Assembly: GCA_903813345.2 (NCBI GenBank)
Contig: CAIIXF020000001.1
Coordinates: 14,756,001-14,820,000 of the forward strand
Direction: 5' to 3'
DNA from: Owenia fusiformis
Taxonomy: Eukaryota
Length of the DNA stretch: 64,000 bases
Position numbers and translations under genes: made by a program. Below, in pieces: positions 15,401 through 46,500 of this stretch. How positions within the stretch are numbered: position 1 is the first letter of the stretch; every line of letters begins with the position of its first letter. Under the pieces are notes generated by a model, which did no database searches, was not told the DNA's origin, and saw only the letters and a program-made list of their open reading frames with translations.

Positions 15401-18400
15401 TATTATTTGAGGAAAAACACATACTAGATACTTAATCCTGACCAGAAGTAACATATTTATTTCATAAGTAATATCTTGAGGCCAAATATCAGTGAATGAT
15501 GTTTTAAGTGTATTTTAATATATTAGATAAACTATACTAAACTAAATAATGAAATCCAATATGACTATTTCCCAAAGAATACAATTTTATGCAACTTTTT
15601 GTTGTTGACTTTGTTCAGTGGTTGGTATTTGACATTTGGGTCTGTTACAAATAGCAGGTGGTTATATTTTGCATGTTACTGTAATGCCTTGTTCCTTAAT
15701 TGTTTTAATATGAAAATGTCATATGTATTGGAATAAAGGACACGCTTATTATCATGTGGAGTAATTAGTAGCTATAAGTAAATTGTTTAACCTTAATCAA
15801 CCTGATGCAGGTGGTTCTTTAGTAATGTCAAAATACATTAAATTTCTTTTATTATGGTAACTATGGTGTTTCTAAACATCTTCAAAGATACTTTGCTTTG
15901 ATATAAGACCTAAATGTCATGCATATCGATGAATATAATTCAGGAATATGTGAGCTAATTGAGAGTTTAAGCCATACCCAAAATGTACCCCATCCCAACT
16001 AAATGTGTGGTTTGTCATTTGCAATGTGCTCATAACAGGAATCTTATATTCTGACAAGTAATCTGTCATGTTCTCTGAATACTTCTTGATATCAGCTGGG
16101 CTTTGATAATTGTCTAGATATTTAGGAAGAAGCATGAGTCCAGGAAAGTGTGGCGTCATCCATATGATCCTTGATCCATTTTTAATTACTCGATCTTTAT
16201 TGAAGTTTAATGCAGCAAAGTATTGATCAAGCGTTTCCTTTGTTTGTGCAAAGTTAAGGTGATCATGTAATCCTATTGTGAAGATGAATAAAAAATCTTT
16301 GGCAGATTTTATGTACTTTTCAGATGCTCTGATCTCAGAGAGTCGATCCCGTTGTTGATAAGCCATCTTTACTTTTCCGTTACAAATTGTGGTGTCTCTT
16401 ATTAAAAGATCCCTGCAGAATTTTAGGTCAAACTGCATGTGGAATGCACACTTCACTTTATCTTCTGAAAGTAAAATGCATTATGCACTATGTTATACAC
16501 AAAACTATTAAGGTATAACAGATTTTTTCAGGAAAATGTAATCCCCATTCCCAGAGGCAGTATTCTTACTTAAGATTCAAAATATTGCAATAGTTGAGCT
16601 TGACTCTTTATGAAGAACATTGTTCACTGGCGGATTAGAGGGGGGGGCCTGGGCCCCCCCCCCCTGGGTGGGCCCAGGAAAAAAAATGGGGCTCCAAAAA
16701 AAGTGGGCCCTTTTGGTCATTAATGGGCCTTTTAAGGCCTTATTTTTTAATTTCAAGCAAAATTTTGAAGAAAATGGGCCTCAAGATTTCAAAATTTGGG
16801 CCCACTTTTGGGTTTTAGGGGCCCAAAATTTTTTCGGACATTTTTTTCTCTGACTTGAAATTTGGGCCCCCCCTTATTGATTCCCAGATCAACCCCTGTT
16901 GTTTGTAATACTGTAATAACTGAAAGGTTTTAAGCCCAGTACTCAATGATCTAAAGTATGGTCTCTGATTTAAAGCATGAATGACTTGGATTTAGACTTT
17001 GAATGAGGGTGTTAGCCCAAATTCAATGGCTAGAATGCATTCAATCACCCACAATTGTGTCATTTGCTTTGCAAAAGATTTTGTAAGAAGAAATAGAGAT
17101 GCAACCAGAAGCATTATTGCAAGGGATTTTTCAAGATTTTATTGTTTAATATTTTGACCTGCATAATCCAACTAAGCCTACCTTGCAATTTATCATGATA
17201 CTATTTATCGTTTTTTTGTCACGCAACTACCAACTTGAAATTGTGAAATTGATGAGGGTAATTAATTTCACTGAATCTAAAGATAGCCAACAATGCATTC
17301 TGTTCTAGAAAGCAATTTTTATCTCTAATGTAATAAAATACACATTTACCAGATGAGGCACTTTTGAGGAGTGCACCACTCTCTAGGTTTCCATTTAGCA
17401 ATATTAGCAATCCAGTCCACATGTGTCTAATCAAGGAATTCCCCACAAAGATGAGATTCTTCACTTTCTTCTGCTCTAACATATCACAAACTGCTGGTTC
17501 TGATTCATACTCTCTTATTTGGCAGTTGTTTGTGTCATCTGGTCTCCAAATGTGTTCTTCTGCATGGAGTCTTGATCTCAAGTCAAGGCACCCTTGGCAC
17601 TTACAGTCTTCTACTGATTTTGTGATACAGTGGTTGTTATAGCAACATGCTTTATCTGAGCTAGGGTGACATAAAGCTCTTCTCGTTGGTGATGTAAATG
17701 TTTGGTACACTGTCTCTTTGTTCCCACATTCTCCGCTGGGTAGCGTCAGTTCATCCTTATTTGGTATCCATTTCATCCTTTCTAGATACTTCCCTCTTTG
17801 CTCGGATTTATACCATTGCCCATGGGTCAAACAATCCAGATAACCTTGGTCCGTGAACTTTTTGTGTTTTTTGGGAATGTTCATCTTTGGATGATGTACT
17901 AATATATCAATTGTCTCTTTGTAGTATCCATCCTTCAGGTTTGAGTGATTCAGATGAACTCTCAAATATCCAATGAGAATGAACAAAGATACTGTTAACA
18001 GTAACACTATGAATTTTGTATTTATATGATAATACTTTAAATCCATAGTTTCAGTAATCTTTACTGCTAAAATAGTCTTGTATGTTCTGTTACTTTATAT
18101 ATTACAAAATGCAGGTGATTTAGTTCATTAAACAATAATTAATTCGTTGTATCAAATAAAGCAAGCAGGTGGTTTTTAGATATTTCTTCAATAACTGGAT
18201 ATATACTACATTGATTTGATAAATTACCATGTTTGAACCTTACACTGTTCTTGGCTAATTTTCCCAGTATTTATCAGTATACAAATATTTATAAGTACTA
18301 TCATATTATGTGCATACAAATAATGGTAATTAAAATGAATAAAAAATAATATCACAGCAAAAGTTCTTGTTTGGAGGATTTCACAATGTTGTGTATTCAA

Positions 18401-27602: not shown

Positions 27603-30600
27603 ATGGTATCCTTGTGTATTTTGGCCGTGTTACCTCTTTTAGTATCTTCGCAGTCCAAGCAACCATTCGGTAAGTTACCATATGCATGAATGCATGCATT
27701 TTTGAACGTCTACTACTATGACATTATCCAGCGTTTGATGTATGGCGAATATCAAAATCTAGCTAGAAACTGTATAATTGGTCAAAACCGGGTCACATTT
27801 CATGGCAGAGGCGTAGCTAGCCCATTTTTATGGTTGGCCTATTAGTATAAAGAATGCATGCGTTGTTTACGGGTGTGTAGGCGTTAATTACGCTCGTGTA
27901 GATGTAAAATTACGCCCGTGCACATTTACAGGCGTGAACTTACGGCGTTAAAATTATTAATTACGGGCGTTAAGACTGTTATTTTACACGCGCTGAGAAA
28001 CATCTTCACGCCCGTGGAGTTTATTTTTAGCGCCGTAAATTATGAACCAATCAGAACCTTACTTACATGATGATTTAATGCATCCTTGCTAAAAGAGCAA
28101 CTCCGAGATACTTGCGCTAGTAAACTTTTTCGTCAGCACGGGCGTAATTTTACATCTACACGAGCGTAATTAACGCCTACACACCCGTAAACAACGCATG
28201 CATTCTTTATACTAATAGGCCAACGTAATTTTTCGTCAGCACGGGCGTAATTTTACATCTACACGAGCGTAATTAACGCCTACACACCCGTAAACAACGC
28301 ATACATTCTTTATACTAATAGGCCAACCATACATTTTGCGAGTGTACGCCCGTATGATTTCCCGGTTTTATCAAAATTAACAAAACGATGGTTCCATAAA
28401 ATAGGAAGATCCCGAGTGTTGAGAAGATAGGGGACACACTAAACACTCTTAATTTAATGAAGGAAATATGTATTGTTTGATCATTTTGACATAGCTTTTT
28501 AAAAGCATTGAATTAACTGTATTAACAGATAATATTCGGGAAACAAAATAGACAGATTGAATTCTATATAATCATGCCATCGGCGATCGAAGCCGTCTAT
28601 CAAGGCGATTTTATTTTTTAGGCTACCTAAAACTGTATGTATGAGGCTCATTGTTTTAAGCTTTTGTGGTCATTCTCCATGAAATATTATTATTTTTTCT
28701 GTGTTTGTTTTTATCTAGCTCACAAGATGATTAACAATAAAAGAACAGTTACACGACCGTCTCAACTCCATTTCGGATCTTAACAACTGTACGTGATTCT
28801 ATAGAATAAATTCTATCTTTCTGTTTTTTGCATTTTTGCATTTGCGAACATGTCAATAACAGTATCAATGTTTATATCGTGTTCCCTATGGATATGTATC
28901 ATGGCCAAGGAAGAAAGTCTTTCCTCGTTCATTGTGGAACGCAAGTATGACTTAATGAATAACAGGATCAACGGGATCAATGCCGGGAGCTCTTGCTGGG
29001 GCCGCCATTGAAGAATACACAACTACAATGTCAACTCAACTGAAACGAAATAAAATTCTCTAATTATCAGTAGGTAACTGATTCAAAACAAAGAAAATGA
29101 AATAATCGAGAACTTTTTTATGTATTAACACGAGTCTTCATAGATCTCCTATCGATTTCTATCTCTTGGTAAAATATTTATTTTTCATCACAATTAATCA
29201 GGTAAATTTTATTTTTCCTTAAAATTTGACAGTACGCCTGGGCGTACTTGGCGTACACGTAGCTACGCCACTGCATGGAATATCTGATTTTATCCCATAC
29301 TTAGTGGTGTTATAGGTAAATTACATGCAGGAATATAATTGATATTTGAGGTGAGCGGAAGATATATATATCTCCCGCTGAGCGGAGCGGGAGATATATA
29401 TATCACCCGCTCAACAATCCCCGGTAATTTCGTTTTATGCTAAATAAAAACCTTTGGAGTTTTTAAAAAACATTAAATGTTAATGTAGTTATAATTTGTA
29501 ATTATTACATGAGGGTTCCAAAACATTAAATGCATATATAATCTACTTATCTTCAAAATCTGCCAAGCGTGGGATAAATCAGTTATTTAATGCTCAATTT
29601 TTGATACATACACCTGTATCAAAAACCTCCATTAAATAACCTCTATTTACACCCTTGCCCAAGTCTTTCTAATCCCGATATCATCCCTGATATCGCCCCT
29701 GTCCCAAATGTGTGATTTATCACTTGCTATTATATGTATACCTGCCTGATATTGCTCTGACCATGGTATAATATCTTTTATTTATCTTGATTAAAAAGAA
29801 AAAAAGACACCGACTTAGGCAAGGTCCTGGGCAAGGCTAGTATTCACCTCGGTAGAGTTAAATATTTGTTTAGTATTCTTGTATAAAAGTCATTTCATTA
29901 TAAATAATCAATATTCAATTCTTTTTCAGAATTTACTGGAGAAAATGGTAAGTGTATTGTACTTATATATGGAATATGCCCACGTCTCACTTCATAAAAT
30001 CATAGAACATGTACACGCTATCTTATGATCTAAGAGTCGGAGAGTCGGAAATACTACATACTGTTGTAAGCAAACTTTTTCAAAAGAGCGCGACGGTGAA
30101 CTGTTAATATATTAGAAATAAAAGATTCATTTTCCTTATTCAGTCATGCTTTCTCTCTCTGGTGAAAAAAACAGATTTCATATTCATTCAGGATCCCCAT
30201 ACCTTGGATGATGTATATAAAGATAAACCCAAAATAGTTTTTAAATTTATATGTACTTTTTGACTATGCTCATCTTCGACTTCCAATGAAGCAACTGAAA
30301 CCTTGTGAATCAAGATGGACTATGTTTGGCTCAATAACAAACGATGTAATCTTGGTGTATTATTTGATCTGCTCTACAGGCGTGGATTCCTGGGGAGAAG
30401 ATACTCCTCTCTGTGACACGGGAACGCGACAATCTCCCATTAATATCATCCACGAAGATACTGTTATCGATCGCTCATTATACTCGCTGCAGTTTTATAA
30501 TTTAGACTCCAAAGTACGAAATAATATAGCGAATGATGGAGTTAAAGGTAAGGCAATTTATTTGAGTAGCCCTACGGTAATTTTGAATTTAGACTTAAAT

Positions 30601-33600
30601 TAAGAACCCCGAATGCCCGAAGGCAAGATTGCCCAAGCCATATCACTACATTCTGATACTCAGACCATCTCTGCTATGCACAAGAATTCTAGAAGGAAAC
30701 TGAGAGAAGGCTGTGATATCTCACGATGTATCACTTCGACTATAATCTAGTATATGTCATTCCGTATTGGGTTGGGAAAATCGAAATCTGGAAACACCTT
30801 GCTTGCTATATATACAGGCCGGGCCGAAAAAATTGGAACATTTTTCCATCCAGTGTAACTTTTTTGTTAGTCATTTATTATCTCCAATACTTCTGGAAAT
30901 TGAAATACAATTCATGATATTGATACACAAGAGACACATTATACAGAACATGACCATGACAATCCAAAAATGATTGTACATACATATTTTTATCTTTTTC
31001 AATTCATTTTCATCTTTTCTCATTTTTACAAATAATTATTTTACCAGTATCCGAATTTTTGTGGATTGAACTGCAATAATAAAGAAAATTGAATAAATAG
31101 AAAAATGTTCCAATTTTTTGGCCCATCCTGTATACAGGATGATCATTAAGAAAGATCAAATGTGCTCTAAATTTTGTAAACATAAATGAATCTGGCTCAT
31201 TTTCTTACAGAATGTTGATCTATTAATTATTCATACCGGCTTAAAAATCACCAAAACTGTGTTGGATATAATACCAAATATAAAGAACACCTAAAATAAA
31301 CATCTGAGAAAATAAGAATGTAGGAAGAATGCATTGAATATAACAAAATATGGCGGTATTTCCAAAGTATAAAACCATGAAGAAAGAAAACATCATAATA
31401 TTTTCTTTCTTTTTTTGACTGCTCCTCGACATGGGTTGCCATGATTACCATAGAACGCAGAATTTAAATGTAACGTGTTGAAATTAACGTTTTGTACAGT
31501 GGGGGACATAAAGAATTACAAAAGCTATTGAAATTACATGCTGTCGCACATGTAATAAATTCTTACCTCAGTGTATTCAGTGCTCTATTTTCTCCGTCCT
31601 AGTAAGTCCAGATATAGTGGAATTCGTGTCCACAATGACAAATAAGAACTTAAACATGACACGTGTCAACATGACACGTGTCAGCTTTCAAATGCTGTTC
31701 CGCCATTTTGAAATCTGTCACGAGTAAATAAGGTATGAGGTTCCATATCCATCCGCCAAAAGGTATGACCCCTATATAGTCCATTTAAAAACTCGTGGTA
31801 TTGTTCTAAATAACGCCATAGTTGGCTTCTAGGGTGGTATCAAAATAAAGAGGAGGAGTTCCACTTTCATTTGAATTACGAAAATAGCGATGTAGGTCAA
31901 AAATAGCTCCGACGTGAGCATGTTTACTACGCGTTTGCCCATCATATCAGAATTGAGGAAGTGGTAGCAAACGCGAGTCACAATAAATGGACGCTGATAT
32001 CTCAAAAAGTAACCTGACTCCCTGTAATTTGATGTAGATCAATCGAACGCCTATATGAACAGGTACATTTTGATATATAACACTATGGGGGGTAAGCGTT
32101 TTATAGTTGGTCACGAACGCCATATGTGCAAAGTATTGTTATGAATTTTCGAATTTGGTGTTGGATTACGGTACTCATACCATAAGGTTACCTGATGTTG
32201 CATTCTGGGAGTCAATCCTCTTTGGATCACAAACATGGCGATTCATGAAAACATTCATTCGATGTGGTAGGGATTTGTCCATCATTTGCAGGTATGAAGC
32301 TTTGGATTTATTTATTGTGCTACTTAAAGTGAATGGGAATTATTTTTCTACAGCTTGGGAGAGTTTGAGACACGAAACTTAGAATTTAGCTCATTGTGAC
32401 AACTTTTGAGGGTTGAGTTATATTTTTTGTCCCCACTGTATGTATAGTTATTAGATCAACATTCTCTGAGAAAATGAACCAGATTCATTATTGTTTACAA
32501 AATCAGAGCACTTTTGATCTTTAGGATCACCCTGTAGATCAAAGAAAAGGCTTGAGTTTAAAGTTCAAGGTCACGCCAAAGGTCAAATTTCAATGTATAA
32601 CTAGTATTCTTTAAAATTTTAAAGCTCAACGTGCCTCTGTTTGGGGACATGAGAAGGTCAAAGTAAGGTGAAATGGCAATATTCCCAAGCGCTGTGTGGC
32701 TCCTGGGGTCATGGAATGTCAAGGTCATTTGAAGTCAAATATCAAGTGGAAATTTCAGAAAACTTATACCATGCTTTTGAGTTCATAAAAGGCCAAGCTT
32801 GTATTTTAGGTAATGGGTACTAGATAAGTACTCGAAACGTCAAAGATAACAACTCATTCACATTTTGAATTCATTACTAATATATATTCCCTCGACAATT
32901 ATAAACGTGCAAAATGTTGAATAATGATTGTTTCCAGTAAGAATTGATATTGGTGAGAAGCAGAACGTTTTTGCATATTTTGGTGGGCTGCCTGGAGTAT
33001 ACAGACTGAGAGACGTGAATATAAATTGGCCAGCCAGTCACCTCATTGACGGATATCGGGCAGACTTAGAAGTAAATATAAAGTACTTCTTCGTACTTTG
33101 TTTGATCTCGATTTTGTTAATGTGGTTAATTAAAGGTAGAATCGAAGAAAGAAGCAATTGCTTCTAAAATTGTCTCACTTCGGCCTTTACGGTCCATTTT
33201 TTCAATATTTTCGAATATTATCAGAATCACTTCTAATATTTGTAACCTCAAAGAAGTTTTAACATTTCTCATAGCCACCGTCTTTGCGATTGATGCTGGT
33301 CATTACTAATATATATTCCCATCAATCACTGCGATTGATGCTGGTCCATATATGGCTAATCTAGCCACAAGCCTCTGTGACTCCCCCTTACTCGACTTAA
33401 ATACCTTTTCACACACTTGTTGTACCTAGGGGAGGGGGGGGGAGCTAGACTAGCATTTGGCGTTTCAAGTCTGTAACAAATATTACAAGTTTGCAACCAT
33501 TTTCAATGAAATTAAACCATGTGGTGAATTTATAGCTGACATTACGTGGGTACAATGCTGAGCTGTACAAGAGCATTGATGACGCTGATGGAAAGAAAGA

Positions 33601-36600
33601 TGGTATAGCTTTGTTTTCTGTTCTTTACAAGGTAAGATCCCTTGGTTCTATGTGTCCAAATTGTTTGTGTTTCCACCAGGATAGACAAAATTGCTTAGTT
33701 CCTACCTACATTTACATGTAGCTTTCAGCGGGAGTTACAAAATCGATGTGCTGTAGCTTGCATCTTGTAGAATTTTTAAATTTTTAATACATTTTAAAAG
33801 CAACGGTTTTAAATCCATATATTTTCAGACTTTCACACTTGATTTGAACTGAAATTGTCGAATTCGTATGATTTGTTTTACTTTTTGAAACAGATATCAT
33901 CAGCTCACAATTTCGTTCTGGAACCTTTGATATCTTCTTTGAAGAACATCAGAGACTTTGGTATGTATCATATATTAAGGATGGCGATGGCTTTCTTTTA
34001 TCTTGGCTTTAACATGTCTTATTTTTACATACTTTTAAATAAATAGGGATATTTTCTTTTAAGTTGTGCCTTAAACCAGTTCTCACAACTGTTTTTACAA
34101 TATGAACTTTTTATTTCTGTGAGTATTTAATGTTTTAGGTAACGAAGTCGATATAGAAAGGGGATTACTTCTGGAGGAACTTTTACCAGCCAGTGCAAGA
34201 TCTTCTTATTACCGCTACAATGGGAGCATTCCCCATCCACCATGCACGGAGACTGGATACATTTGGTATGTCTTTGCCGACCACCTTTACCTCTCAGAGA
34301 ATCAGGTACGAAAATCACACTAAATGGTAAAAAACACTTGCCTACTTCCAAATCAATAATAAGTAGCAGCAAATGACAATATTCGGTAAAATAGAATTGA
34401 TCCCCTTCCAGTTAAATGAGCTCAAGATGCTTCGGGATAGTAATGGTAACCGTATGGATAACCTGTTCCGACCTGTGCAAAGTTTAGAAGGACGAATCGT
34501 TTCTAGACCAGCCTTCCGAATACCAAGGGTCGATTTTCTCAGTGATTCTGACAAGGCACCACCAACTAAAAAAGAATGTGAGTAACAATCAGGTATCCAA
34601 AGCTAAGTTCATGAAGAGAAATGAAAAAGATATACCTCTATTATGGATACTCATGGCCGATCAATGTAAGCTACTCGCTTGCATCATTTTGTACCCTCAC
34701 CCTTTTCTAGCTTGCCTTGATGTGTTCTTTGTAATTGACGAGAGCTGTTCAGTATATGAGGATATACCAAAGGTTAAGCAGCTACTGCTTGATGTAGTGG
34801 ATAAGACTATCATTGGAAGGAGGTCTGTGTTGATGTCATTGGTGAGGTAAATAATCATTAGTATAGTTATTTTTAGTGTTAATATAATACTTTGTATGCG
34901 ATGTACCAACATCATACAAAATTCTTCGAATATAAAATGTAGATTCTGTTTCAGGTACCATGACGATGTCAACTTGAATTTTTACCATCTGAACACAACA
35001 AACAACGAAGTGACCAAGAAGTTTATTGAAACACAGCCTCTGGGCCAGACTGCTTCTTGCAAGACTCAGACATACGATGCGTTGAAGTTCAACTCAGAAT
35101 TGTAAGTTACATCGGCTTCAATGTCCATCTTAGTTTGGCTATGTCATTTCCGGGCAAGTAACATTCTCATGCCGGCGATGATGAACTCCCCGGGATGTAC
35201 GCATATTAAGCAGTCCCTACTCTAACGAGAAGTATCATTCTCGCGGCAATTACTCTTCTATACTCCTCAAAATAAGTTAAGGACCAGTCTTTTTCCTCAT
35301 GGGTTTACATGTTTAACCCCATGTATCTTAAAACTCAATTTTCTAAACCCGAAACAAAAGAAAAACTGATATTGTAAATGGATATGTACTTTGACTCTAT
35401 TCTCTATATTTCAGGTAATTTTCAATTTAATCTCTCTATCAAAATCAGATTTTTGGATATATTTTCGGTAAAACATTTATTAAAAATAATTTCTGAGTAG
35501 ACAATTGAATTGTTTTACTTTCTGCATGTTTGGTATTAAGCTTACTTTGTGAGAATTACAGATAATAGAGCATCAACGTATTTTGACAACTCATTTTTGA
35601 CCCCTGTGTTATTTCAATGGGAGGTTTATTGAGAAATGATTTTGACTTTTGAGATTCATAACTTTGTAAAACCTGGAGAAACAAATCAATTTCTTGTTGT
35701 AGACAAGTTAGCAAATTCAGTTGTCTATTTAAATTCCATTTTTGAGAGCAATTGAATGTATGAATATTTTCTCATATGACTTTTGGCAACCCAACCACTT
35801 CCCATTGGTTTACATTGGTTCTGCCATTTTTATTAAATTCCTCAAATTTGACATCAATTTTTGACATATTGAAACGGAGAGATTGAATTGAAAATTTTCT
35901 GAAATATAGAGAATAGAGTCAAGGTACATATCCATTTACATTATCAGTTTTTCTTTCGTTTCAGGCTTTGCAAATATAAGAGTTCAAACAGAGATGGGGT
36001 TTAACATGTAAACCTATGAGGAAAAAGACTGGTCCTTAACTTTTTTTGAGGAGTATATTTCCATGGTCAATTTACATTGTAGTTTCTTCCGTTTGGGCAA
36101 AAATGCATCGGACAAATACACCGGAGTCAGGTCTAATTCAATTGCCAAGGATGTTTTGTTTGTGATCACCGATGGCGTATCGATTCCAATAGGCAGACGG
36201 AGTCGTAAGTAGGCTAATGAATAAATGAATTGGAAAGGCAGAACCGCCATCCGAGTTCATATTATTTCAATATGATGAAAATTGATCTGTGTAATCATTC
36301 TCTTTTTCCTTAACGGAATGACTATAATAAAATGTTTATTTGACAGAGGCATTGAAACAGGCTCAAAAGATTAGGATATCAGGGGTGAAAATGTTTACAA
36401 TTGGGTTACATAACCAGAAGGAGCGAGACGGCTCCCCCGAACTACTAGGCTTCGTCAATGATGATGCGAATCACGCGTTCAGTATAGACGACATTGATCT
36501 AGCGGATACTGTTGCAGGAATTATCAACTCGGCAGACCCTTGCTTTTCTACCACCACTCCTAGGCCAACTACCACAACTACGCTTCCTGAAAGAGAAATT

Positions 36601-39600
36601 GGTAGCTATCTGACTTGGCTAGACTTGGCTATCGTTATTCTTTCCTTTTTATGTCCCCACCACATAGTGTGGAGCCATATTGTCGGCCTAAGCTCGTTCG
36701 TCTGTTTGTCCGTCCATCCACCTGTCCGGCAGTTTTCTCCAAAACAGCTAGAGATATCACCTGAAGATTTTCAGGGATAACTTATGAGTGCATAGTGCAT
36801 ACAGATGTGGATAAAACTTTTTTAACTCGATCTCTACTTCCTGTTGGCCATTTTGAAGTCAAATGCTAAAATCCCTGTCTGCAAACTATAAGAAAAGCGG
36901 CTTCACACATTGGTGATTCACTCGATTACGCTGGTTAACGAAAGAAAAAAGAAAAGTCGTATCTTCGAGGTTCCGACATTTTATTACCGTTTCTTGAACC
37001 AGCGTAATCGAGTGGATCACTAGTGTTCACAGTTGCTTTTCAAACTTTAACATCTTGTTCAGCTCACTTCATTCTACATCTGAATAGGGGTTGGACCTGT
37101 TAGCTCAGTCATTTTCACTTTAACTATTTAGCAGCTTTATAAATAATTTAAGGTGTGATATGTTGTAAAAGACTATGTTATTGTTAAACAGTAGTTGTAT
37201 GCAATAATTTTGTAAAAAGAAATCAGCAAAAACTACTTTTTTATTGCCGGTGTAAAAGGGTAGGAGGTCCTATCAAATTATGGTCCTTCTCTCCATTGAT
37301 TTATATGGTGACCTAAATACAACTCTTTCCCTTATCTTATACACAATCAGGGCCAGTAAGGGCAGTTTAGAAAGGGGACCATAATCCCCAGGGGACCATA
37401 ATTTCTTTCACACCGGCCATTTTGGATTTTTCCACCCTAAAATCTTGTCTGTAAATGGGGATTTCCAAAATTCAAACGCAAATATCTTTGGAAATACAGT
37501 AGGTAATATGTAGGTAAAAGAAAAAAATTTACCCTTCTTATTTTGATGATAATCATATTATTGTAACATCTTAAGAATATGGGTTTTGTTACTCTAGATC
37601 TGTTCTGCAGGGGATCTTTTGAAGATTGATAGATTAACATGAGGCTCAATATAGGTTTTTATAGTTTTTAATGGCTAAATAAATTAAAACTTAAGGAATT
37701 TTCAGAAATATGTCTGTTTGATCTTTTAAAATCAAAGTATTAACTATAGAAATCTACAATATAAGAAAATTTCAAAGTGGGCTTTTTGAGAAAAGGACAC
37801 TTTAGTAAAGCTATATTGATAGCGGTTTATAATGGCACTCAATGGGGATTTTCTAGAATTTAAATGCCAATATCTTTGGAACTAGGAAAAAGAAAAAATT
37901 TAACCCTTCTTATTTTGAAGATAATCATGTTCTTGTAACATACTGCATGTGCTGGGAATATGGGTTTTACTACCCTGCGTGCAGAGTCTAGTTAAACTAC
38001 AACGAAGAAGACAAAGTTCTCTTTTAAGAAGTGAAGTCAAACGAATGCAAACAGGGTAGGGTTTTACCGTTTTTTAACTTTTCTGCAGGGGGTCCTGTGA
38101 AGATTGATAAATTAACAAGGGGCTCAATATACGGTTTTTAATATTATAGTTTTAAAGGCTAAATACATATTAAAGTAAGAAATTTTCAGAAATACGTCTT
38201 TATATAAATGTAAGTCGGCATGTATTCGACAGTTAATGTACATACATGATGTATGCATCAACGTGTGACTTAAATATCAGTTCATGACTATCATATTTGG
38301 CTTTCAAAAATTAAGTTGGAAGTTACAGTGGTAGGAGATTAACGAAAACGTCAATCACATCCAAATATCCGAACGACGTCAAGTATTAACAATACACTTT
38401 TCGTGCATCTCGAACAAGGCAAGGTTCTGTGATCCAGCAATGTGCATTCCGAAAGAAAAAATCACAAATATCAACAAATTTCTTTGAGTAGGATATTACA
38501 TTCGAAATTCACAATTTTCAAAATCTTTGTTTTAACCAAGAATTGTAAGAACTTGAAACATGTTGTTAGTTTTTCAAACCGCATATCCTCATTTACGTTC
38601 TTTCACAAGGATGAATCCATTTGAAAACAAGGATTTTCTCGATTATTCTTCAAAACTACCCTTGAAATATAAGTATGTAGGATATTACAGTGTAAATTGA
38701 CACGCATTTGTTTGCTCCATATCATGAACAAATAAATGCAGTACCATCTTTGAATATTTGAAAACAGAAAGTTAATTCTGTATGTAAACAAGAAAAAATA
38801 CATTTATGGTTGGTTCATAATGAAAAATGACAAATAACATACATCTTTTGAAGTAGGGGTATAAAGGGACACAGTGGAAAATCAGAAATTTAGGCCATAT
38901 CCCCAAGATTGCTTCACCAATATGTAACAGAACATCAAAATTATCATTTACACGTTTGCTGATAGGTGCAATTGTGGCACCATTCTTAGTAAATATTGAT
39001 GAACATACGAAAATCTAATGTTGACTAAGTTACTTGACTTGACCGTTCAATTTTTTTAGTAACAAATTTTGACATTGGAACAACGACCAAGACTCCAACC
39101 ACAACAAAACCACCAATTGCATTCAGTTGCCGAGATAAGTTAGACATCATATTGATAATCGATACGTCTCAGAGTTTGTTAAACAAAAAACAGAGAACAA
39201 GTCTAAAGGTTAGCAGAACGGCTGAAAAGGAATGGGAATATAGGCAAGGTGATAATATGACGTCTGAAAACCTCAAAACAGTCAAGGAGTTTTTGAGAGA
39301 ATTGCTCGATCTATATGTAATCGGTAAGCTTTTATGGGACTAAAAACGTATCTAGTGTCTGCTAAAATATTTAGTTGGTGCAAGTCTGAGTACGGCTACT
39401 ACGTGCAACTACAAGTAGATACTATACTAAATACAATAAAAACTGAAGGATCCATTTCCCAAGTATACTTTGAAATCAAATCTATCTTTAATCCTAGGAC
39501 ACGGTGCAACACACGTGGCAATTCTGACATTCGACGAAGAGGTTGTCTTACATCAAAAGCTTAATGACACAAAGAATAGGGAAACCACGATCCAAGCGCT

Positions 39601-42384
39601 AATGGGCATTAAAGAGTGGACTGGAAAGGGCACAAGAACTGACGAAGCTTTATTTCAAGCGAAAAAGTATGTATCAATGTTTCAACCTTATTTAGAACAA
39701 AGGTTCTGATGGTGTCACATATACATGTACATCATCACCGTTCCACAACTAGTTACTTTGACGGAACGAGTTTTTTATTTTCTCGGTTTAAACCGACTTA
39801 TAAGTCAAGTTGCAGATAATTTGGCACAAAGCTTGAAAATATAGTCTTGCTTTAATAAGTTTCTTCGATTTAAAATTTGTTTCGTTGATGAAGCTGCAAT
39901 TCATATTTAGTCCCTCGCTTTTGTTACCCTATCACACCAAACTAGTTTTCACTACGTTCTCAAAACGGGCGTCAACTGTGTACGAACGGAATGGACGTAC
40001 TTAGAACCGTTTGGGGTCTATTTACAAACTTCATCGAACGTACCCGAACGGGTAGGTCCTCTAGAACTTAGAACATGCTCAAAATGTTCTCGTTGTCGAT
40101 ACGTTCTACAATTAGAACGAGTGACAACGTACTAACGACGAGCTGGACGTACTACGAACGGAACCGTCGTACTTCAATCCTACTAGGGATGTTTTAACAA
40201 CGAGTTGAACTGTCTGAGGACGTATTGAGAACGAGGTAGAACTAATTGCAAACCGGTTTAAACTGATTAAGAACGTTTTTAAGACTGCTTATGAACGAGT
40301 TAGCAAAAATATAGCTATCACACCAACAATTAAGTTGCCACTGCGTTCTTTAAACTGGTTTTAAACTGTGTGCGAACGGAATGAACGTAGCTGCAACTTT
40401 CTAAGGTCTATTTACGAACTTCATAAACGTTCTCAAACGGGAAGGTGATTTTAGAATTTTGAAATGATTCAAAATTCGATGGCGACCATACCGTTCTGTA
40501 ATTAGATCGTGTGACAAAGTACTTCAAACGAGATGACCTACAGGAACGTAATATTAATTGCCGTACTTCAACCCTAATAGGGACGAGTTAACTTACGACG
40601 TTGTGCAATCGGATATCAATTTGTAGTGCATGTACATACCGACATGGTGCGACCTGGACGAACTAGGAATGAGATGGACGTATTATGAACGAAGTGGCTA
40701 ATTATTTTTGACATATTTCACGACCACAGCCAGACTTAGCCCGTTTTACGGATTTTTCGTAGGACTGGAAAGAACGGTTGAGAACTAGTTTGGTGTGATT
40801 GGGGCCTTACATTGACGAAAGTCTATTATATTACCAATGTATGTTACTTTGACGACTTACGTCAATGTAACAAAAGCGATGGTCTAAATGCATAAATTAC
40901 AGCTTTATTTAAAAATCAAATTCCAAACCGAGAGCAATTCTAAAAGCTATACTATATTGCCTAACTTTGTGCCAAACGATCAATCGCAACTTGCCTTATA
41001 AGTAGGTTTCAATTGAGAAAACAAAAACACGTAACAAGGAAGTTCATCCATTTTGCTACATCGACGTTCCGTCAAAGTAACTAGCTGTGGAACAATGATC
41101 ATGGCCCACCATGGTGAGGTCACCGAAACTAGATTCCAATTTCTTTAATTTCATTCGGACTTAACTATAATCAGGATCAATGTATAAACAGTAAAACATT
41201 TTTTAAAATAGAATATTGTCCTCTCGGCCTGACAATCGTCCAGAGGCTGCCGATTTAGTGATTTTGGTAACAGATGGGGTCGTAACACCATGCTGTGAAA
41301 CACATGAACGTGGATGCTGCAGGTACGAAGTGTGTAAACCGAGCATCACTGGGAACCCATGTTTGAGCAAGGATGGAGCCATAGAGGTGAGTTGAATATG
41401 CATGGACCTACATCATCAGTGCAATATATAGGGACAAAAAAGATTGGCCTTTTAAAGTAAAGTTTTTAAAAGTTCCTCACTCTGCGTTGTAAAATTAAAA
41501 ACTTTACTTTAAAATACCAATACTTTTTGTCCCTACATCTCGACACTGATGATACGCCTTGACAATATATAACCTACATAGGTTTGGCAACTGAAACCAC
41601 TTGACATTGCTATGAAAACCAAAGTTTAATAGTGTGACAATGCAGGACTGTACGTTCTTAACAACAGATGTATGCTTATTGAACAGGGCATCATCATATC
41701 TAATTATCATAATTGATTCCCTAAATTGCAAAATATATTTCAGAGAGTTACAAATGTGTCCGAAGAAATACACGCTGATTTCAAGGAGGCAACCTTCATT
41801 GTACTTTCTCTGCCTAATAAACCGGAAGTTGTAAAAAAAGCTAAAAGGAACAAGAGAGGTGTACCAAGTAAAGCGACTAAAGATATTGGTAAATATGACA
41901 ACTCTCTGGATGTTTGTGAAGTCTGTATTTTCCTCAACTACCAATTCACGATAGAAATACGACATGACAAACAGTAGTCTAAATTACCTTCCAACCTAAT
42001 CTAGTGCTATAGAGGACATACACAAATCGTTAATCAAAATGTTTAGTATGCAATGGCAGTACAACTTTTTAAGTTTTTGTAAGCCAATGGTTGGCCATCG
42101 TGGCAAGCCACGCCCTCTCCATCTCTATCCTTCTGGAGATCTGCGATGCAACAGAGAGAATGATGGTTGGCCACGTAATTACTTAATTGATGTATTGTCG
42201 TTGTTTTGTTGTTTCAGCATTTAAGATGTATAAGAATATAGTTGGCAAAGGAAATGAAATGAATATTGTGAACTTTACCAAATTTGATGAGTTAGAGCAC
42301 AGGATGAAGGATGTTAATGACAAAATATGCGAAGGGATAAAAAACAAATGTAAGGGAATAAGTTCACGTTCACTCTTAAAATGA
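27603..42384 (+). CDS. Secreted protein: signal peptide, acatalytic alpha-carbonic anhydrase (CARP-like) domain, vWA, Thr/Pro linker, vWA; ~820 aa, 17 exons
   Basis: Exons: 27603-27669, 29930-29947, 30380-30547, 32938-33071, 33536-33631, 33894-33960, 34139-34305, 34412-34577, 34711-34846, 34955-35101, 36083-36204, 36347-36601, 39060-39323, 39498-39666, 41212-41386, 41744-41888, 42218-42384 (2463 nt, open frame, all GT-AG). Signal MVSLCILAVLPLLVSS. CA motifs RQSPINI, GGLPGVYRL, YYRYNGS..PPCTE and FRPVQSLEGR. vWA1 LDVFFVIDESCS...T...VITDG; vWA2 LDIILIIDTSQS...GTRTDEAL...LVTDG. Confidence 0.88.
27806..29273 (-). mobile_element. Non-autonomous hAT element with 5-bp TSD and transposase dimerization-domain remnant (28813-~28960, minus)
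   Basis: TIRs CAGAGGCGTAGCTA / TAGCTACGCCACTG with CATGG on both flanks. Peptide IKSYLRSTMNEERLSSLAMIHIHREHDINIDTVIDMFA is typical of the hAT C-terminal dimerization domain. Confidence 0.85.
27829..28331. mobile_element. Long-TIR MITE nested in the hAT element, with its right TIR tandemly duplicated
   Basis: ~90-bp left TIR TATGGTTGGCCTATTAGTATAAAGAATG...; inverted copies at ~28137-28224 and ~28239-28331; CATTTT on both flanks. Confidence 0.85.
30813..31132. mobile_element. Tc1/mariner-type MITE
   Basis: TA|CAGGCCGGGCCGAAAAAATTGGAACATTTT...AAAATGTTCCAATTTTTTGGCCCATCCTG|TA. Confidence 0.8.
31133..32536. mobile_element. Tc1/mariner-type MITE containing a nested MITE at 31495-32440
   Basis: Outer ~90-bp inverted ends TACAGGATGATC...GATCACCCTGTA; inner TACAGTGGGGGACA...TGTCCCCACTGTA. 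Confidence 0.75.
35261..36055. mobile_element. Long-TIR (fold-back) Tc1-like MITE
   Basis: TA|CTCCTCAAAA(T/A)AAGTTAAGGACCAGTCTTTTTCCTCAT inverted ends, with the inverted match extending well over 150 bp. Confidence 0.85.
36646..36900 (+). mobile_element. Truncated HINE 5' end
   Basis: TTTTTATGTCCCCACCAC..GTGTGGAGCCATAT followed by a GTCC/GTCT microsatellite. Confidence 0.5.
36906..37027. mobile_element. Miniature inverted-repeat element (~120 bp)
   Basis: GTGATTCACTCGATTACGCTGGTT / AACCAGCGTAATCGAGTGGATCAC inverted pair. Confidence 0.7.
37450..38200. repeat. Diverged tandem duplication (~390-bp period)
   Basis: ATGGGGATTT...ATATCTTTGGAA...CCCTTCTTATTTTGA...GAAGATTGATA...GGCTCAATATA occurs twice. 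Confidence 0.7.
39736..41097. mobile_element. Transib-like palindromic non-autonomous element (second, deleted copy at 53594-53877)
   Basis: Termini CACCGTTCCACAACTAGTTACTTTGACGGAAC / GTTCCGTCAAAGTAACTAGCTGTGGAACAATG; 5-bp TSD ATCAT. Confidence 0.8.
39927..40806. mobile_element. PIF/Harbinger-like element nested in the Transib-like element
   Basis: TIR CCCTATCACACCAAACTAGTT / AACTAGTTTGGTGTGATTGGGGCC with TTA on both flanks. Removing it restores the host palindrome. Internal ~390-bp direct duplication. Confidence 0.75.
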
Positions 42385-43208
42385 CACATATTAACAATTT
42401 CTTTTGAAGCAAAAATATAGGTACGGTTGATAAATATGAATAATGAAACTGAAATCTTGTCTCTTGTTTAGAATTGCTTACTAGCAACCAATATACGAGC
42501 AATTAAAGTTATTGTATTTATTTGCTATTTGATTATCATTCTATTTATTTATTTGTATCCACAACAGACTCCAACAACCTATAGACGTTCGACCTTTACA
42601 ATTTTGGTGGCATATACTGTCTTGCCTGGTTGATTCATGATGGAACGGGATCAAAGAGCGAACATATTGAATCTATGTTGGATATTGTGCACAAAATACG
42701 CTGTGAAAGATAAATGTATGAATAAAGTAAAACTAAATATATCCTATCTTGATTTCTTGTTAACTAGTACTCGTTTTGCAAATAGGAAGTTATTGTTAGG
42801 CCTATTGTTAGTCAGGACGTAATCGCGGATATCTTTATCCATGTTAACTAGGCTACAGAATGACTAACAGATCATTGTCTGTATTTGACTTAAGATTGAA
42901 TTGCATCAAATATGAGGAAAGTAAACATGTTACCTGTGTGAAAACATAGATCTCATAGATCATTCAAATATCTAGATGGAGCCGAGTCTTTTTTGGGACA
43001 ACAGGCAATCTTAGTATACTAAGAACAGTAATTATTTCAACTTGAAAGCAAAAGGCTTGCGCTCAATGCTGTTTCATACAAAATATCAAAACAATTTCAG
43101 CTAACACCCTATATTTTCTTCGAATCTTGATCCCAGACCTAAATTTACAAACAGAAGATAGCAGAAAACGTTCATGAAAAGTTAACACTTGTGAAAAAGT
43201 TTTTTAAA

Positions 43209-43240
43209 TTTCCCGCGATCAGTAAACACATGCGCATGCG
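43209..43240 (+). promoter_or_regulatory. Candidate arginine kinase promoter motifs
   Basis: TTTCCCGC (E2F-like) and TGCGCATGCG (NRF1-like, 43231-43240), ~350 bp upstream of the ATG. Motif match only. Confidence 0.3.
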
Positions 43241-43588
43241 TAGTCGCTTAGCTACCGTATCTTGATTGAAGACCCCTTCAAATAGTGTTGAATTGTTAAT
43301 ACTTTCTAATTTATTATTGTTGTATAAAATAGGCACTCACTTCCTTGATTTCATAACTTTTCAAAGGTCAGACAAAGGTGATTTGCTCAAATTAGTAATA
43401 CTAAGATGGTCTGGTGTGGTTTACCGTAAAAATCATTTTTATAAATGCAAGTTAATTTACAGTCCTTCCAAGCGGTCCTTACTCAATCAAGAACGGGAGC
43501 GTGAATAGTGCTAAGGAAAGTCGCTGTCAGAGGTCCTGCTTATTTTCTCAAAAACCAACTGTTTAAGTTCTCAAATACACTTGTCATC

Positions 43589-46500
43589 ATGGCAGATGAA
43601 AGATACGATGAGTATGTGAAAAAATTGGAAGAAAATGAGTCGAAGTCCTTGATGAAAAAACATTTTTTGCCTAACAAAGATGCGGTGAAAGATCTGAAAA
43701 CTCCTTTGGGTGGGACAATCTGCGACTGCATAAAATCTGGTAAGTAAACTCAAAGTAGGTTCTAAACTAGAAATTTTAAATTGTTATTTTATCTGCCTTA
43801 TATCTTATATCGTTGTGAGAATAGTGTTCCTTTTACATAGCTGGTAGCTGCAAAGACTAGATTACAGTAAAATTTTAAATGGAACTACAGTCTACACCAG
43901 GAGGAGTGAGTAGCTCCCATAATTCTTTCATATTCTATCGTATTCCGGGATTCCCCATTACATCATCTCTTGCATCATCTCCAATCAAATTGCAGGATTC
44001 GATCACGTGAACAATCATGAGCACGTGCTCTCTCAGTGCTTCGCATGCGCAGAGTTAAATTTGAAATCGTTGGAATGGCGTTAACATCAGTTCAACATCA
44101 TCATTTCAAACCTACGGTAATACTATTGAAGTTACTCGATCCATACTTGTAGAGAATACTCATAAAACTACAGTGAACATTTGGAGATCCATTTCAACGG
44201 CAAATTGAGGCCTGTTTATAAAATTTGTTTTCGAACGTGCTAATATGATAGGGCATCTTTGGGAAATCTCCCCCCCTGAGTCTACACTGTACTTTGAATC
44301 ATGGGCTTTCAAGAGAAGGGTATGCAACCTTATCTTGTTCCAACGCCATTCTCTTCATTTCTGGTCTTGGAGGGGATCCATTGAAACACATGTTATTTTT
44401 CAAAAGTCGAAATTTAACGGCGTTAGGTACGCATATATTTCTTACCTCTATCTAATCGGGGAAATGCTGACTGGTTATCGCAGGGGGTAAAAAGAAAGAA
44501 GATATTCTGGATTTTGAAGCCCTGTGATCGGAGGATAGGAAAGAGTACAATTACATATACTGTAAAACGGGTATTGTTAGCGAGGGGAAATTTTTAGCGA
44601 TCGCTATAGTTTCGCTAAAAATTCAATTCGCTAAAATAAACCGGGGTTATAAACCGGGCGCTAAAATTTGCAAATTCCCGGGAAACTACATGAATACTAG
44701 TATTTAAGGAGCTTTTGTTCAGTGCTCGACTTCCGGTTTCTAATTTGAAAAAGGTAAATATTTTTAAATCGTATGTTTCTTTCAATATCTGAAGGATAAA
44801 TAGCCATCCATCCAGTTTAGTTTGGATCAATACCATGTGCGTTAGATGTCTTACATTTTGGTAATTCCTCTGTCATGTCCGTTATTCATTCTTCTGCCAT
44901 AAATGATAAAATTTCTAATGCATTTCGCTAATTTGATTTTTTTAAGATTAATCTTCATTTCGCTAAAATTTCCCGCGCTAAAACCCCCTAAAATTGAAAA
45001 ATCGCTAAAATTTCCCGGTGTCAAAATTACCCGTTTTACAGTACCTACTTCAATCACTAAAATATTAGTTTCTGATGATAGCTTTTCTTTTGCATCAGGT
45101 AAATTAAGATGAAAGGAATACCACATTGATATGTGCATGTCTGAGAAAAGTAACAACTTTTTGCATTCTTATTAGGAAACATGTTCATACCTCGATAGGA
45201 TATTACATACATGTACAGACTATACTGCTTTAGTTTGGTTGCTGATCAGATCTAGAACCCCAAATGTACAGGGAGATTTAAATGATCTTATTGTCACAAA
45301 TGATCTGCTATGACCTATTCCTTGTCATCCTGACTCGGTGACTGTTAACAAACGCATAATAACCAACAAATCAATGATGCATCATGAATCTCTGTATAAT
45401 CCAAATGCTACAAGTACATGTTAAAGTTTATAGGAAATTACAAAACAAGTCCCAGGAATTGTCAAGGCTTCCTTATATGCTATAATTAAATATAAAAATG
45501 AAGGAAGCTTTTTTAATAAAACTTTATGATAAAAATGACAGTCAAAAGAAGAAAGATACTCTTAAAAACTGTTTTTCAATGTTTTGTGCAGAGTTCTAAT
45601 AATCTCAGGAGCACTACTTTTTCAATGTTACCTCTGAGAACCTGGTCATAACAGAGTTGAACCATCCAGTATTGAATTTCTCTCCCTTCTCCCGAGTTCA
45701 ACCCAGTCTGACTCGAATATATAAATCAATTGTCTCTTGTGCCAGACTAGGGCTGTGCCGGAACCGGTTCGGACGGTTCGGAATCGGAACCGGAACTTGG
45801 TCTCACGGAATCGGAACTTTCGGAACCCCTTTTGGTTCACAAATGAAAATAATTATGTATGAGTGAGTTCGACGGCGATCATGACGATATCGTCGTCCAA
45901 GTTTGTCAGGTTAACACTTACCTTTCCTGTCAAGCAAGTTTGAATGTTTTTACGAAAGAAATAGACTCTAAAATCACTTCGACGCCAAGTATAAAAGGCA
46001 ACCAAAAATATAAACGAATACGAAACTACTCGAGGAAAATCTGTCATGGGGAAGATAATTTCTTCTAAATCAATTAATCTGATATTGTAAGAGTTAAAAT
46101 GTAATTAATTAACGCTGTTAGATTGTAAGACGTCATGGAAAAGTAAATTTATTCATTTATCTATGAGTATTTTCGCCCCGTCGATTCCTACTTCCAATGA
46201 AATCCGAAGGTCAAAGTTCGTAAAACAAAACTTGATTTCTGTTGATTTCTCCGCTATTTATTTTGTTTATGCGAGTAATACACATGCAAATTGGATGTAG
46301 TTTGAAGGAAAACATCACTGGAGGAACAATGGTCACGGATATTAACGATTCAAAGCAAGTACTAAGGTAAGGGTCCGATATTGTTCCGAAACCCTTCGGA
46401 ACATGATATTAAAATTCCGAATTCCGGTATTTTAACAAAAGTCCGCGGTTCGGACCGATTCCGGTCGAATGGCACGGCCCTATGCCAGACTGCCTCTAAG

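Follow-up and report, generated by a model that had tools for sequence, protein, structure and literature searches.

An Owenia fusiformis gene for a secreted protein that joins a carbonic anhydrase-like domain to two von Willebrand factor A domains

Can a carbonic anhydrase (CA) domain and two von Willebrand factor A (vWA) domains belong to one secreted protein and, if so, what would such a protein do? The question arises from a 64,000-nucleotide stretch of the genome of the tube-dwelling annelid Owenia fusiformis (the window: assembly GCA_903813345.2, contig CAIIXF020000001.1, positions 14,756,001 to 14,820,000 of the forward strand; coordinates below count from its first letter). A scan of the window finds Pfam Carb_anhydrase and VWA pieces in separate exons of the + strand. 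The first part of the question has a plain answer: these exons form a single 18-exon gene, which encodes an 814-residue secreted modular protein with the domain order CA, vWA1, Thr/Pro linker, vWA2. The second part can be answered only in graded terms.

With a 70-residue exon translation as query, P0001 was retrieved, an unnamed O. fusiformis protein of 809 residues that is flagged as partial and is 100% identical to the window. It maps exactly onto 17 exons of the + strand, beginning with an ATG at 27603. All 16 introns between these exons run from GT to AG, and their acceptors are pyrimidine-rich. A preliminary description, made from the letters of the window alone, had proposed one frame of 17 exons; its exons and introns match those of P0001, but its end does not stand. 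An eighteenth exon was found in contigs of two sequencing runs, X6 (depth 1755.6) and X12 (depth 24), where 42349 is spliced to 42568 across a GT..AG intron. The full coding sequence comprises 18 exons and 2445 nt, encodes 814 residues (residues 1-809 being P0001), and ends with TAG at 42582-42584. The last 11 codons of the 17-exon model, together with its stop at 42382-42384, are read-through into intron 17. In the 3' untranslated region (UTR) an AATAAA lies at 42721; X6 contig depth persists to the bin 42475-42981 and is zero in 42982-43488. The GC content of the region is 31-38%, and its open frames are short and separated by stops.

The critical feature is intron 8, the phase-1 intron through which CA and vWA1 are joined (donor AAT/GTGAGT; acceptor TTTTCTAG/C). 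The read-through stop, a TAA at 34583-34585, sits within this intron. Four sequencing runs (X5, X6, X12, and X13) were compared with window positions 29800-45000. Contigs of X6 and of X12, the latter an independent run from 2014, are spliced, and at least 14 of the GT..AG joints of the model are recovered. One X12 contig of 2268 nt spans exons 3 to 16, and so carries both CA and vWA exons. In the numbering of that record, exon 3 occupies 1970-2133, exon 4 1834-1969, exon 9 1204-1337, exon 10 1055-1203, exon 12 679-932, and exon 13 415-678. Thus, 496 letters separate exon 4 from exon 9, the summed length of exons 5-8 (96+67+167+166), and 122 letters separate exon 10 from exon 12, the length of exon 11. 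Because these counts match, the CA and vWA exons lie on one transcript contig that has no space for extra junction sequence. At the 5' side, an X6 loose end at 29929 consists of the final 30 letters of exon 1, and ties the signal-peptide exon to exon 2. The k-mer depth of the spliced contigs is 1290-2749 in X6 versus 16-24 in X12, contig k-mer depth being a poor measure of expression. Contigs of X5 are collinear with the genome, introns included; they are DNA-like and have no bearing on splicing. Nor has X13, which is certain to be RNA and consists of raw reads: its depth on the exons is approximately zero, which indicates only non-expression in that sample.

Could the model instead be an artefact of annotation or assembly, in which a CA gene and a neighbouring vWA gene were wrongly joined? 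Two observations might be held to favour an artefact: the 34577/34711 joint is absent from the 15 joints listed (66 more are unlisted), and X6 contigs are interrupted between 34573 and about 34744. The 'partial' flag on the public model, which might also be held to favour an artefact, is accounted for because exon 18 is missing from that model. Against wrong joining stand the exact letter count of an X12 contig that holds both halves; the canonical splice sites and the in-frame, phase-1 join; the lack of a start codon or signal peptide ahead of vWA1; and the recurrence of the same junction peptide in paralogues on three chromosomes. An artefact is extremely improbable. The exon 8-exon 9 junction rests on the X12 letter count, the public annotation, and the paralogues, and these agree with the preliminary description, which had joined CA to vWA through intron 8, placed the stop at 34585 within that intron, and counted one gene rather than two.

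The exon structure also follows the domains (Table 1). Phase-1 introns bound three blocks: exons 3-8 (CA), exons 9-12 (vWA1 plus half of the linker), and exons 13-17 (the other half plus vWA2). Symmetric blocks of phase 1-1 are the hallmark left when extracellular modules are shuffled as exons. The three blocks therefore match what exon shuffling of such modules predicts, and the gene offers a clean example with three phase 1-1 modules.

Table 1. Coordinates of the CA-vWA gene in the window, and genomic locations of the Owenia proteins of its family.
Feature	Location	Strand	Content or remark
Exon 1	27603-27669	+	Start codon; signal peptide with its hydrophobic core at residues 2-14 and small residues before about residues 16-18
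Exons 2-8	29930-29947, 30380-30547, 32938-33071, 33536-33631, 33894-33960, 34139-34305, 34412-34577	+	Predicted acatalytic alpha-CA domain, about residues 23-275; short spacer to residue 295
Intron 8	34578-34710	+	Phase 1; joins CA to vWA1
Exons 9-12	34711-34846, 34955-35101, 36083-36204, 36347-36601	+	vWA1, residues 296-495; first half of linker at 36544-36601
Exons 13-17	39060-39323, 39498-39666, 41212-41386, 41744-41888, 42218-42349	+	Second half of linker at 39060-39127, then vWA2, residues 538-805
Exon 18, coding part	42568-42584	+	Five codons and TAG at 42582-42584; 3' UTR beyond
P0001	62.2-Mb contig		
P0156, P0002	Same 62.2-Mb contig		Consecutive accessions, outside the window
P0003	34.9-Mb contig		70% identical to P0001; partial
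P0152/P0004	31.9-Mb contig		
P0057 (CA), P0050 (CA/vWA1 junction), P0032 (vWA1 end and vWA2)	31.9-Mb contig		Consecutive accessions; partial models

The gene has relatives in the same genome: the CA-vWA architecture is shared by six or more loci in Owenia, spread over three chromosomes. Three of the partial models, P0057, P0050, and P0032, probably are one split model, the sixth member of the family. (P0057, the one row in the main clade of a CA-domain tree that had seemed to lie outside the family, turned out to be the Owenia partial model beside the other two.) Adjacency of paralogues is read from consecutive accession numbers and a shared contig. The junction peptide aligns in P0002, P0003, P0152/P0004, and P0050, and is contiguous in P0156. 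Identity between paralogues is 34-39% for CA versus 37-54% for vWA, and for P0003 it is 61% versus 78%. Since the CA domain is conserved between paralogues about as well as the vWA domains, it is under constraint, even though predicted to be inactive.

Does the combination occur elsewhere? A HMMER search of 1.84 billion representatives gave 4686 matches at E <=0.001, of which the best 150 were considered. Both CA and vWA were matched in five of 155 proteins, all from Owenia (P0001, P0002, P0003, P0004, and P0152); the remainder matched CA only (131) or vWA only (19). A family profile, scored against 8000 candidates, picked out 41 proteins at E <=1e-10. PF00194 and PF00092 occur together in four of them (P0001, P0002, P0156, and P0003), again all from Owenia, and the other 37 are 36 CA proteins and one collagen VI-like vWA protein. 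Clusters in the ESM Atlas are vWA-only or CA-only. Hence CA and vWA were not found together outside Owenia by the HMMER search, the family profile, or the ESM Atlas, an absence that is meaningful because a CA+vWA protein of ordinary divergence should outscore the 150th match (97 bits), and that is bounded in turn because oweniids are sparsely sampled and transcriptome proteins fragmentary. Neither a CA+vWA protein nor the Owenia gene is described in the published literature searched, supplementary tables being outside its scope. Judged by these sequence comparisons, CA-vWA-vWA is a domain combination not previously described, built from known modules and so far found in Owenia only. The preliminary description, which knew of no characterised family with this architecture, was right on this point as far as these databases and this literature go.

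The CA domain has kept its fold. Pfam Carb_anhydrase (PF00194) matches residues 29-270 of P0001 (E 8.8e-51). In an AlphaFold2 (AF2) model built from a 76-row alignment, with a mean predicted local distance difference test score (pLDDT) of 79.9, ten-residue block means exceed 89 across residues 21-270. Foldseek gives target TM-scores of 0.84-0.90 to alpha-CA chains, human and mouse CAs included; the best matches are CA I, XIII, XIV, VII, and XII, and PTPRZ. (Run with the whole model, Foldseek returned alpha-CA chains only, so nothing was added on the vWA domains.) By sequence, matches in the PDB include CA12 (E 3.9e-25), RPTP zeta (2.7e-23), and RPTP gamma (1.5e-22). Cys40 and Cys219 occupy alignment columns with conservation of 90% or more, where extracellular CAs have their disulfide. 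The net charge of the domain is -9, as compared with -2 for vWA1 and +5 for vWA2.

The alpha-CA fold is present, but the zinc histidines, the gatekeeper residues, and the proton shuttle of the enzyme are gone. In alignment with human CA12, H-x-H-W becomes N-x-N-W and E-x-H becomes E-x-T, which places Asn112, Asn114, and Thr131 at the zinc-ligand positions. (The third is Thr once the exons are spliced correctly.) The Thr-Thr that precedes Pro-Pro-Cys in CA12 is Pro-His here, with Pro215 in place of the gatekeeper Thr; the Glu of S-E-H-T is replaced by Ser118, and the proton-shuttle His by Val83. In CA II numbering, these sites are zinc His94/96/119, gatekeeper Thr199/Glu106, and shuttle His64. 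The baseline was provided by 68 single-domain CAs from the search, in which His occupies the first, second, and third zinc columns of 60, 67, and 61 proteins, the two Thr are kept in 66 and 63, the Glu in 67, and the shuttle His in 55. With all three zinc histidines, both gatekeepers (Thr and Glu), and the shuttle His replaced, the Owenia domain should be unable to hydrate CO2. By every sequence criterion it is predicted to be acatalytic, which upholds the dead alpha-CA of the preliminary description.

The loss extends through the family. All six members that include the region keep the fold and have lost at least one zinc His, and the second zinc His is absent from all six with a CA core (P0001, P0002, P0156, P0152, P0003, and P0004), whereas it is present in 67 of the 68 single-domain CAs. 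Might the domain nevertheless be an enzyme, either with other metal ligands or as a hydrolase or esterase? Full retention of the fold, conservation of Glu117 in six of six members, and the two of three His that survive in P0002 would suit such an activity. The replacement of all three zinc ligands and of the Thr199, Glu106, and His64 equivalents, along with the family-wide loss of the second His, renders an enzymatic role highly improbable.

The rest of the protein has the marks of an extracellular molecule. The N-terminus is its most hydrophobic 19-residue window (Kyte-Doolittle 1.58, at residue 1), and AF2 places a helix at residues 2-14. A hydropathy scan across the protein found no second segment of membrane-helix grade, and the C-terminus is polar. 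Since the only hydrophobic segment present is N-terminal, the protein should be both secreted and soluble, as the signal peptide of the preliminary description had implied.

Pfam VWA matches two stretches (E 2.7e-32; best at residues 298-480), VWA_2 matches residues 544-681 (E 4e-15), and AF2 block means are mostly 80-95 in both vWA cores. Residues of the metal ion-dependent adhesion site (MIDAS) in vWA1 are D304/S306/S308, T377/T379, and D419; the D-x-S-x-S, T-x-T, and T-D-G motifs align with those of the integrin alpha-M I domain. The corresponding pattern in vWA2, assessed by pattern and family alignment only, consists of D549/S551/S553 (D-T-S-Q-S), a Thr within G-T-R-T-D, and D680 (V-T-D-G). 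Every paralogue carries the pattern in both vWA1 and vWA2, two of them with D-T-T-Q-S. The MIDAS pattern, described as intact from the outset, indeed appears so in both domains, and cation binding is predicted. Each domain is bracketed by a pair of cysteines: Cys296/Cys495 for vWA1, and Cys538/Cys803 for vWA2. The intervening linker, also anticipated in the preliminary description, contains 16 Thr and 6 Pro in 50 residues and is modelled as disordered (pLDDT <50 at residues 497-535; three loops likewise fall below 50). It is mucin-like, flexible, and probably O-glycosylated.

One element of vWA2 is peculiar to the family. Directly after the MIDAS Asp, within exon 15 (41212-41386), residues 686-709 form an insertion with six cysteines (C-C...C-C...C...C). 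Along with the vWA2 motif it is invariant across the five members that include this domain (five of five), whereas all of the other 190 proteins compared lack it. The insertion is modelled at low confidence (688-705), and could be a disulfide knot or a metal site beside the ligand face.

What, then, might the protein do? We favour, with moderate confidence, a secreted protein that would bridge or cross-link components of the extracellular matrix, anchored through its vWA MIDAS sites and using the dead CA as a binding module. In vWA and I domains, the divalent cation held by the MIDAS is completed by an acidic side chain of the ligand. Each intact MIDAS here would hold a cation that is completed in this way, and the pair would provide cation-dependent binding or self-assembly. 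The two sites may anchor the protein in a matrix: cuticle, basal matrix, or secreted tube lining. Meanwhile the dead CA domain would project from this chain and bind a third partner, its fold retained as a folded binding module in the way that RPTP gamma/zeta and CA8/10/11 retain theirs.

Three points weigh against this bridging function. The geometry of the MIDAS sites was assessed from motifs rather than coordinates. The vWA domains resemble solved vWA domains of matrix proteins and integrins only weakly (E 3e-5 to 4e-3), so the class of ligand is unreadable from homology. Finally, P0002 retains two of the three zinc histidines and P0156 retains one; given the two in P0002, residual metal binding may persist somewhere in the family.

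Precedents for the CA part are found in PTPRG, PTPRZ, CA8, CA10, and CA11, which likewise have an extracellular alpha-CA fold minus zinc histidines; use as a binding module is what we infer here. In those vertebrate-type proteins, however, CA either is paired with FN3 and phosphatase domains or stands alone, and none pairs it with vWA. Contactins are the partners of RPTP zeta/gamma, and neurexins those of CA10/11. The Owenia protein might similarly be a soluble ligand for the cell surface, with the dead CA binding an immunoglobulin (Ig)-superfamily or neurexin-like receptor and the vWA domains tethering or clustering it. In keeping with this idea, RPTP zeta/gamma CA-like domains are among the best PDB matches, near CA12; RPTP CA-like domains dominate the non-Owenia matches of the family profile; and Foldseek matched a chain of the PTPRZ-CNTN1 complex with a target TM-score of 0.85. 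The phylogeny offers no such affinity. A quick tree of CA domains resolves little of the branching (38 of its 70 inner branches are open) and shows no grouping with the RPTP or carbonic anhydrase-related protein (CARP) clades, the latter represented by one named row only, P0188, on a long branch; a single origin of the family's CA domains is neither supported nor rejected by it. Nor does the Owenia protein have the FN3 and phosphatase domains of the receptors, and orthology to RPTP gamma/zeta or CA8/10/11 is unsupported by the tree. Moreover, a Thr/Pro mucin-like linker, a pair of vWA domains, and a tandemly expanded gene would more typically mark a matrix or secretory product. A receptor ligand of this kind is unlikely.

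Precedents for the vWA part are the alpha chains of collagen VI, the matrilins, and the integrin alpha I domains. They share the vWA fold and MIDAS, in Cys-flanked domains as here, and the best non-CA matches comprise collagen VI alpha-3, integrin alpha-M, a collagen alpha-6(VI)-like protein of Physella, and matrilin-2-like clusters. Unlike collagen VI and the matrilins, the Owenia protein has no collagenous, EGF, or coiled-coil parts in Pfam, and its vWA2 has the family's own six-Cys insertion. Fusion of a secreted alpha-CA to some other extracellular binding module also has a precedent, in the CA VI-pentraxin proteins of non-mammalian vertebrates; an ESM Atlas cluster named 'putative carbonic anhydrase 6' has CA plus Pentaxin. 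There, however, the partner domain differs from vWA, and the CA is regarded as catalytic.

The preliminary description had proposed a scaffold, adhesive, or mineral-nucleating protein, and had drawn a biomineral analogy with nacrein (CA) and with Pif and BMSP (vWA). The molluscan shell matrix proteins nacrein/N66 (CA) and Pif/BMSP (vWA plus chitin-binding) also are secreted invertebrate proteins that use one or the other module. Nacrein, however, belongs to the active type of CA and carries a repeat insert, and nacrein-type CAs retain the zinc site. Owenia secretes no mineral skeleton. Pfam finds only CA, VWA, and VWA_2 in the Owenia protein, which has neither a chitin-binding domain nor an acidic repeat domain, and its net charge is modest; Pif/BMSP proteins combine vWA with chitin-binding domains and a mineral-binding acidic part. 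In the molluscan shell matrix, CA and vWA modules are described on separate proteins (PMC7747718; PMC11291548), and passages of PMC7747718 and PMC5379566 that name a 'carbonic anhydrase domain' concern nacrein-type proteins. The tube of the related O. collaris is described as a secreted organic fibrous lining with sediment grains in its outer layer and no secreted mineral (PMC4375521). The biomineral analogy is weak.

That same tube architecture lends itself to a proposal close to the mineral reading of the preliminary description, namely that the protein works in tube cement or at carbonate surfaces: its zinc-less pocket would bind bicarbonate or carbonate, or the CaCO3 of shell fragments, and its vWA domains would cross-link the tube lining. 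The family is lineage-restricted and tandemly expanded, and the very high k-mer depth of the X6 spliced contigs could be read in its favour, poor measure of expression though such depth is. The protein is not markedly acidic, however, and lacks the domains noted above. Pocket residues also vary among paralogues, which argues against one conserved small-anion site. This proposal is quite improbable. Bolder still, and a long shot, is the suggestion that the CA-vWA-vWA family is an oweniid invention and a major secreted component of the tube lining or particle cement. In that case the pocket might grip carbonate or shell-fragment surfaces, or else the tube polymer, while the MIDAS sites and six-Cys insertion would cross-link fibres; if true, the family would represent a new class of annelid bio-adhesive.

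If the CA domain serves the bridging function favoured above, animals would have turned an inactivated alpha-CA fold into a binding module outside the cell in a third, independent way, the receptor phosphatases and the CARPs being the other two. The small family, so far specific to Owenia, belongs to an annelid that serves as a slowly evolving reference for evolution and development, and offers a concrete candidate for the biology of the tube or cuticle matrix. To our knowledge, little is known of annelid proteins of the tube or cuticle matrix outside the sabellariid cements. Overall, we regard this as a lineage-restricted combination of known modules, of moderate significance, for which function is what we infer from likeness. 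The practical benefit is modest: an eighteenth exon and a stop codon can be added to complete the public gene model, and the three partial models on the 31.9-Mb contig probably merge into one member.

The surroundings of the gene are less distinctive. On the - strand, 15917-18094 contains a neighbouring gene with two long frames, of which the upstream one begins with an N-terminal hydrophobic anchor and weakly matches PC-esterase (GDSL/SGNH-like; E 4.7e-4, 20.6 bits, below the Pfam cut-off); the gene probably encodes a type II membrane protein of the PC-esterase family. On the + strand, 43505-43747 appears as the first exon of the next gene, begins M-A-D-E-R-Y, and weakly matches the N-terminal ATP:guanido phosphotransferase domain (E 5.6e-4, below cut-off). 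One contig of X12 (2143 nt, depth 337) begins at 43567 and departs from the genome at 43740, the behaviour expected of a spliced mRNA. This next gene, probably a phosphagen kinase, bounds the CA-vWA gene on its 3' side. A tblastn match to the CA core at 8552-8626 on the - strand (E 0.52) has no supporting frame, and was set aside as chance.

Repeats account for the remaining features. Word depth is very high in all runs, reaching 116,000 in X5, at 31321-32334 (intron 3), 36391-38418 (intron 12), 39940-40446 (intron 14), and 43489-45000 (downstream). The same stretches, in which loose ends and odd joints abound, are dispersed repeats or remnants of transposons, and X13 shows transcription of some. 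Intron 1 (27817-28367) contains a 103-bp unit twice, at 28126-28327 with a 98% match, plus inverted copies of the same short frame, and intron 10 (35378-35935) contains a second inverted pair. The repeats of both introns look like miniature inverted-repeat transposable elements (MITEs).

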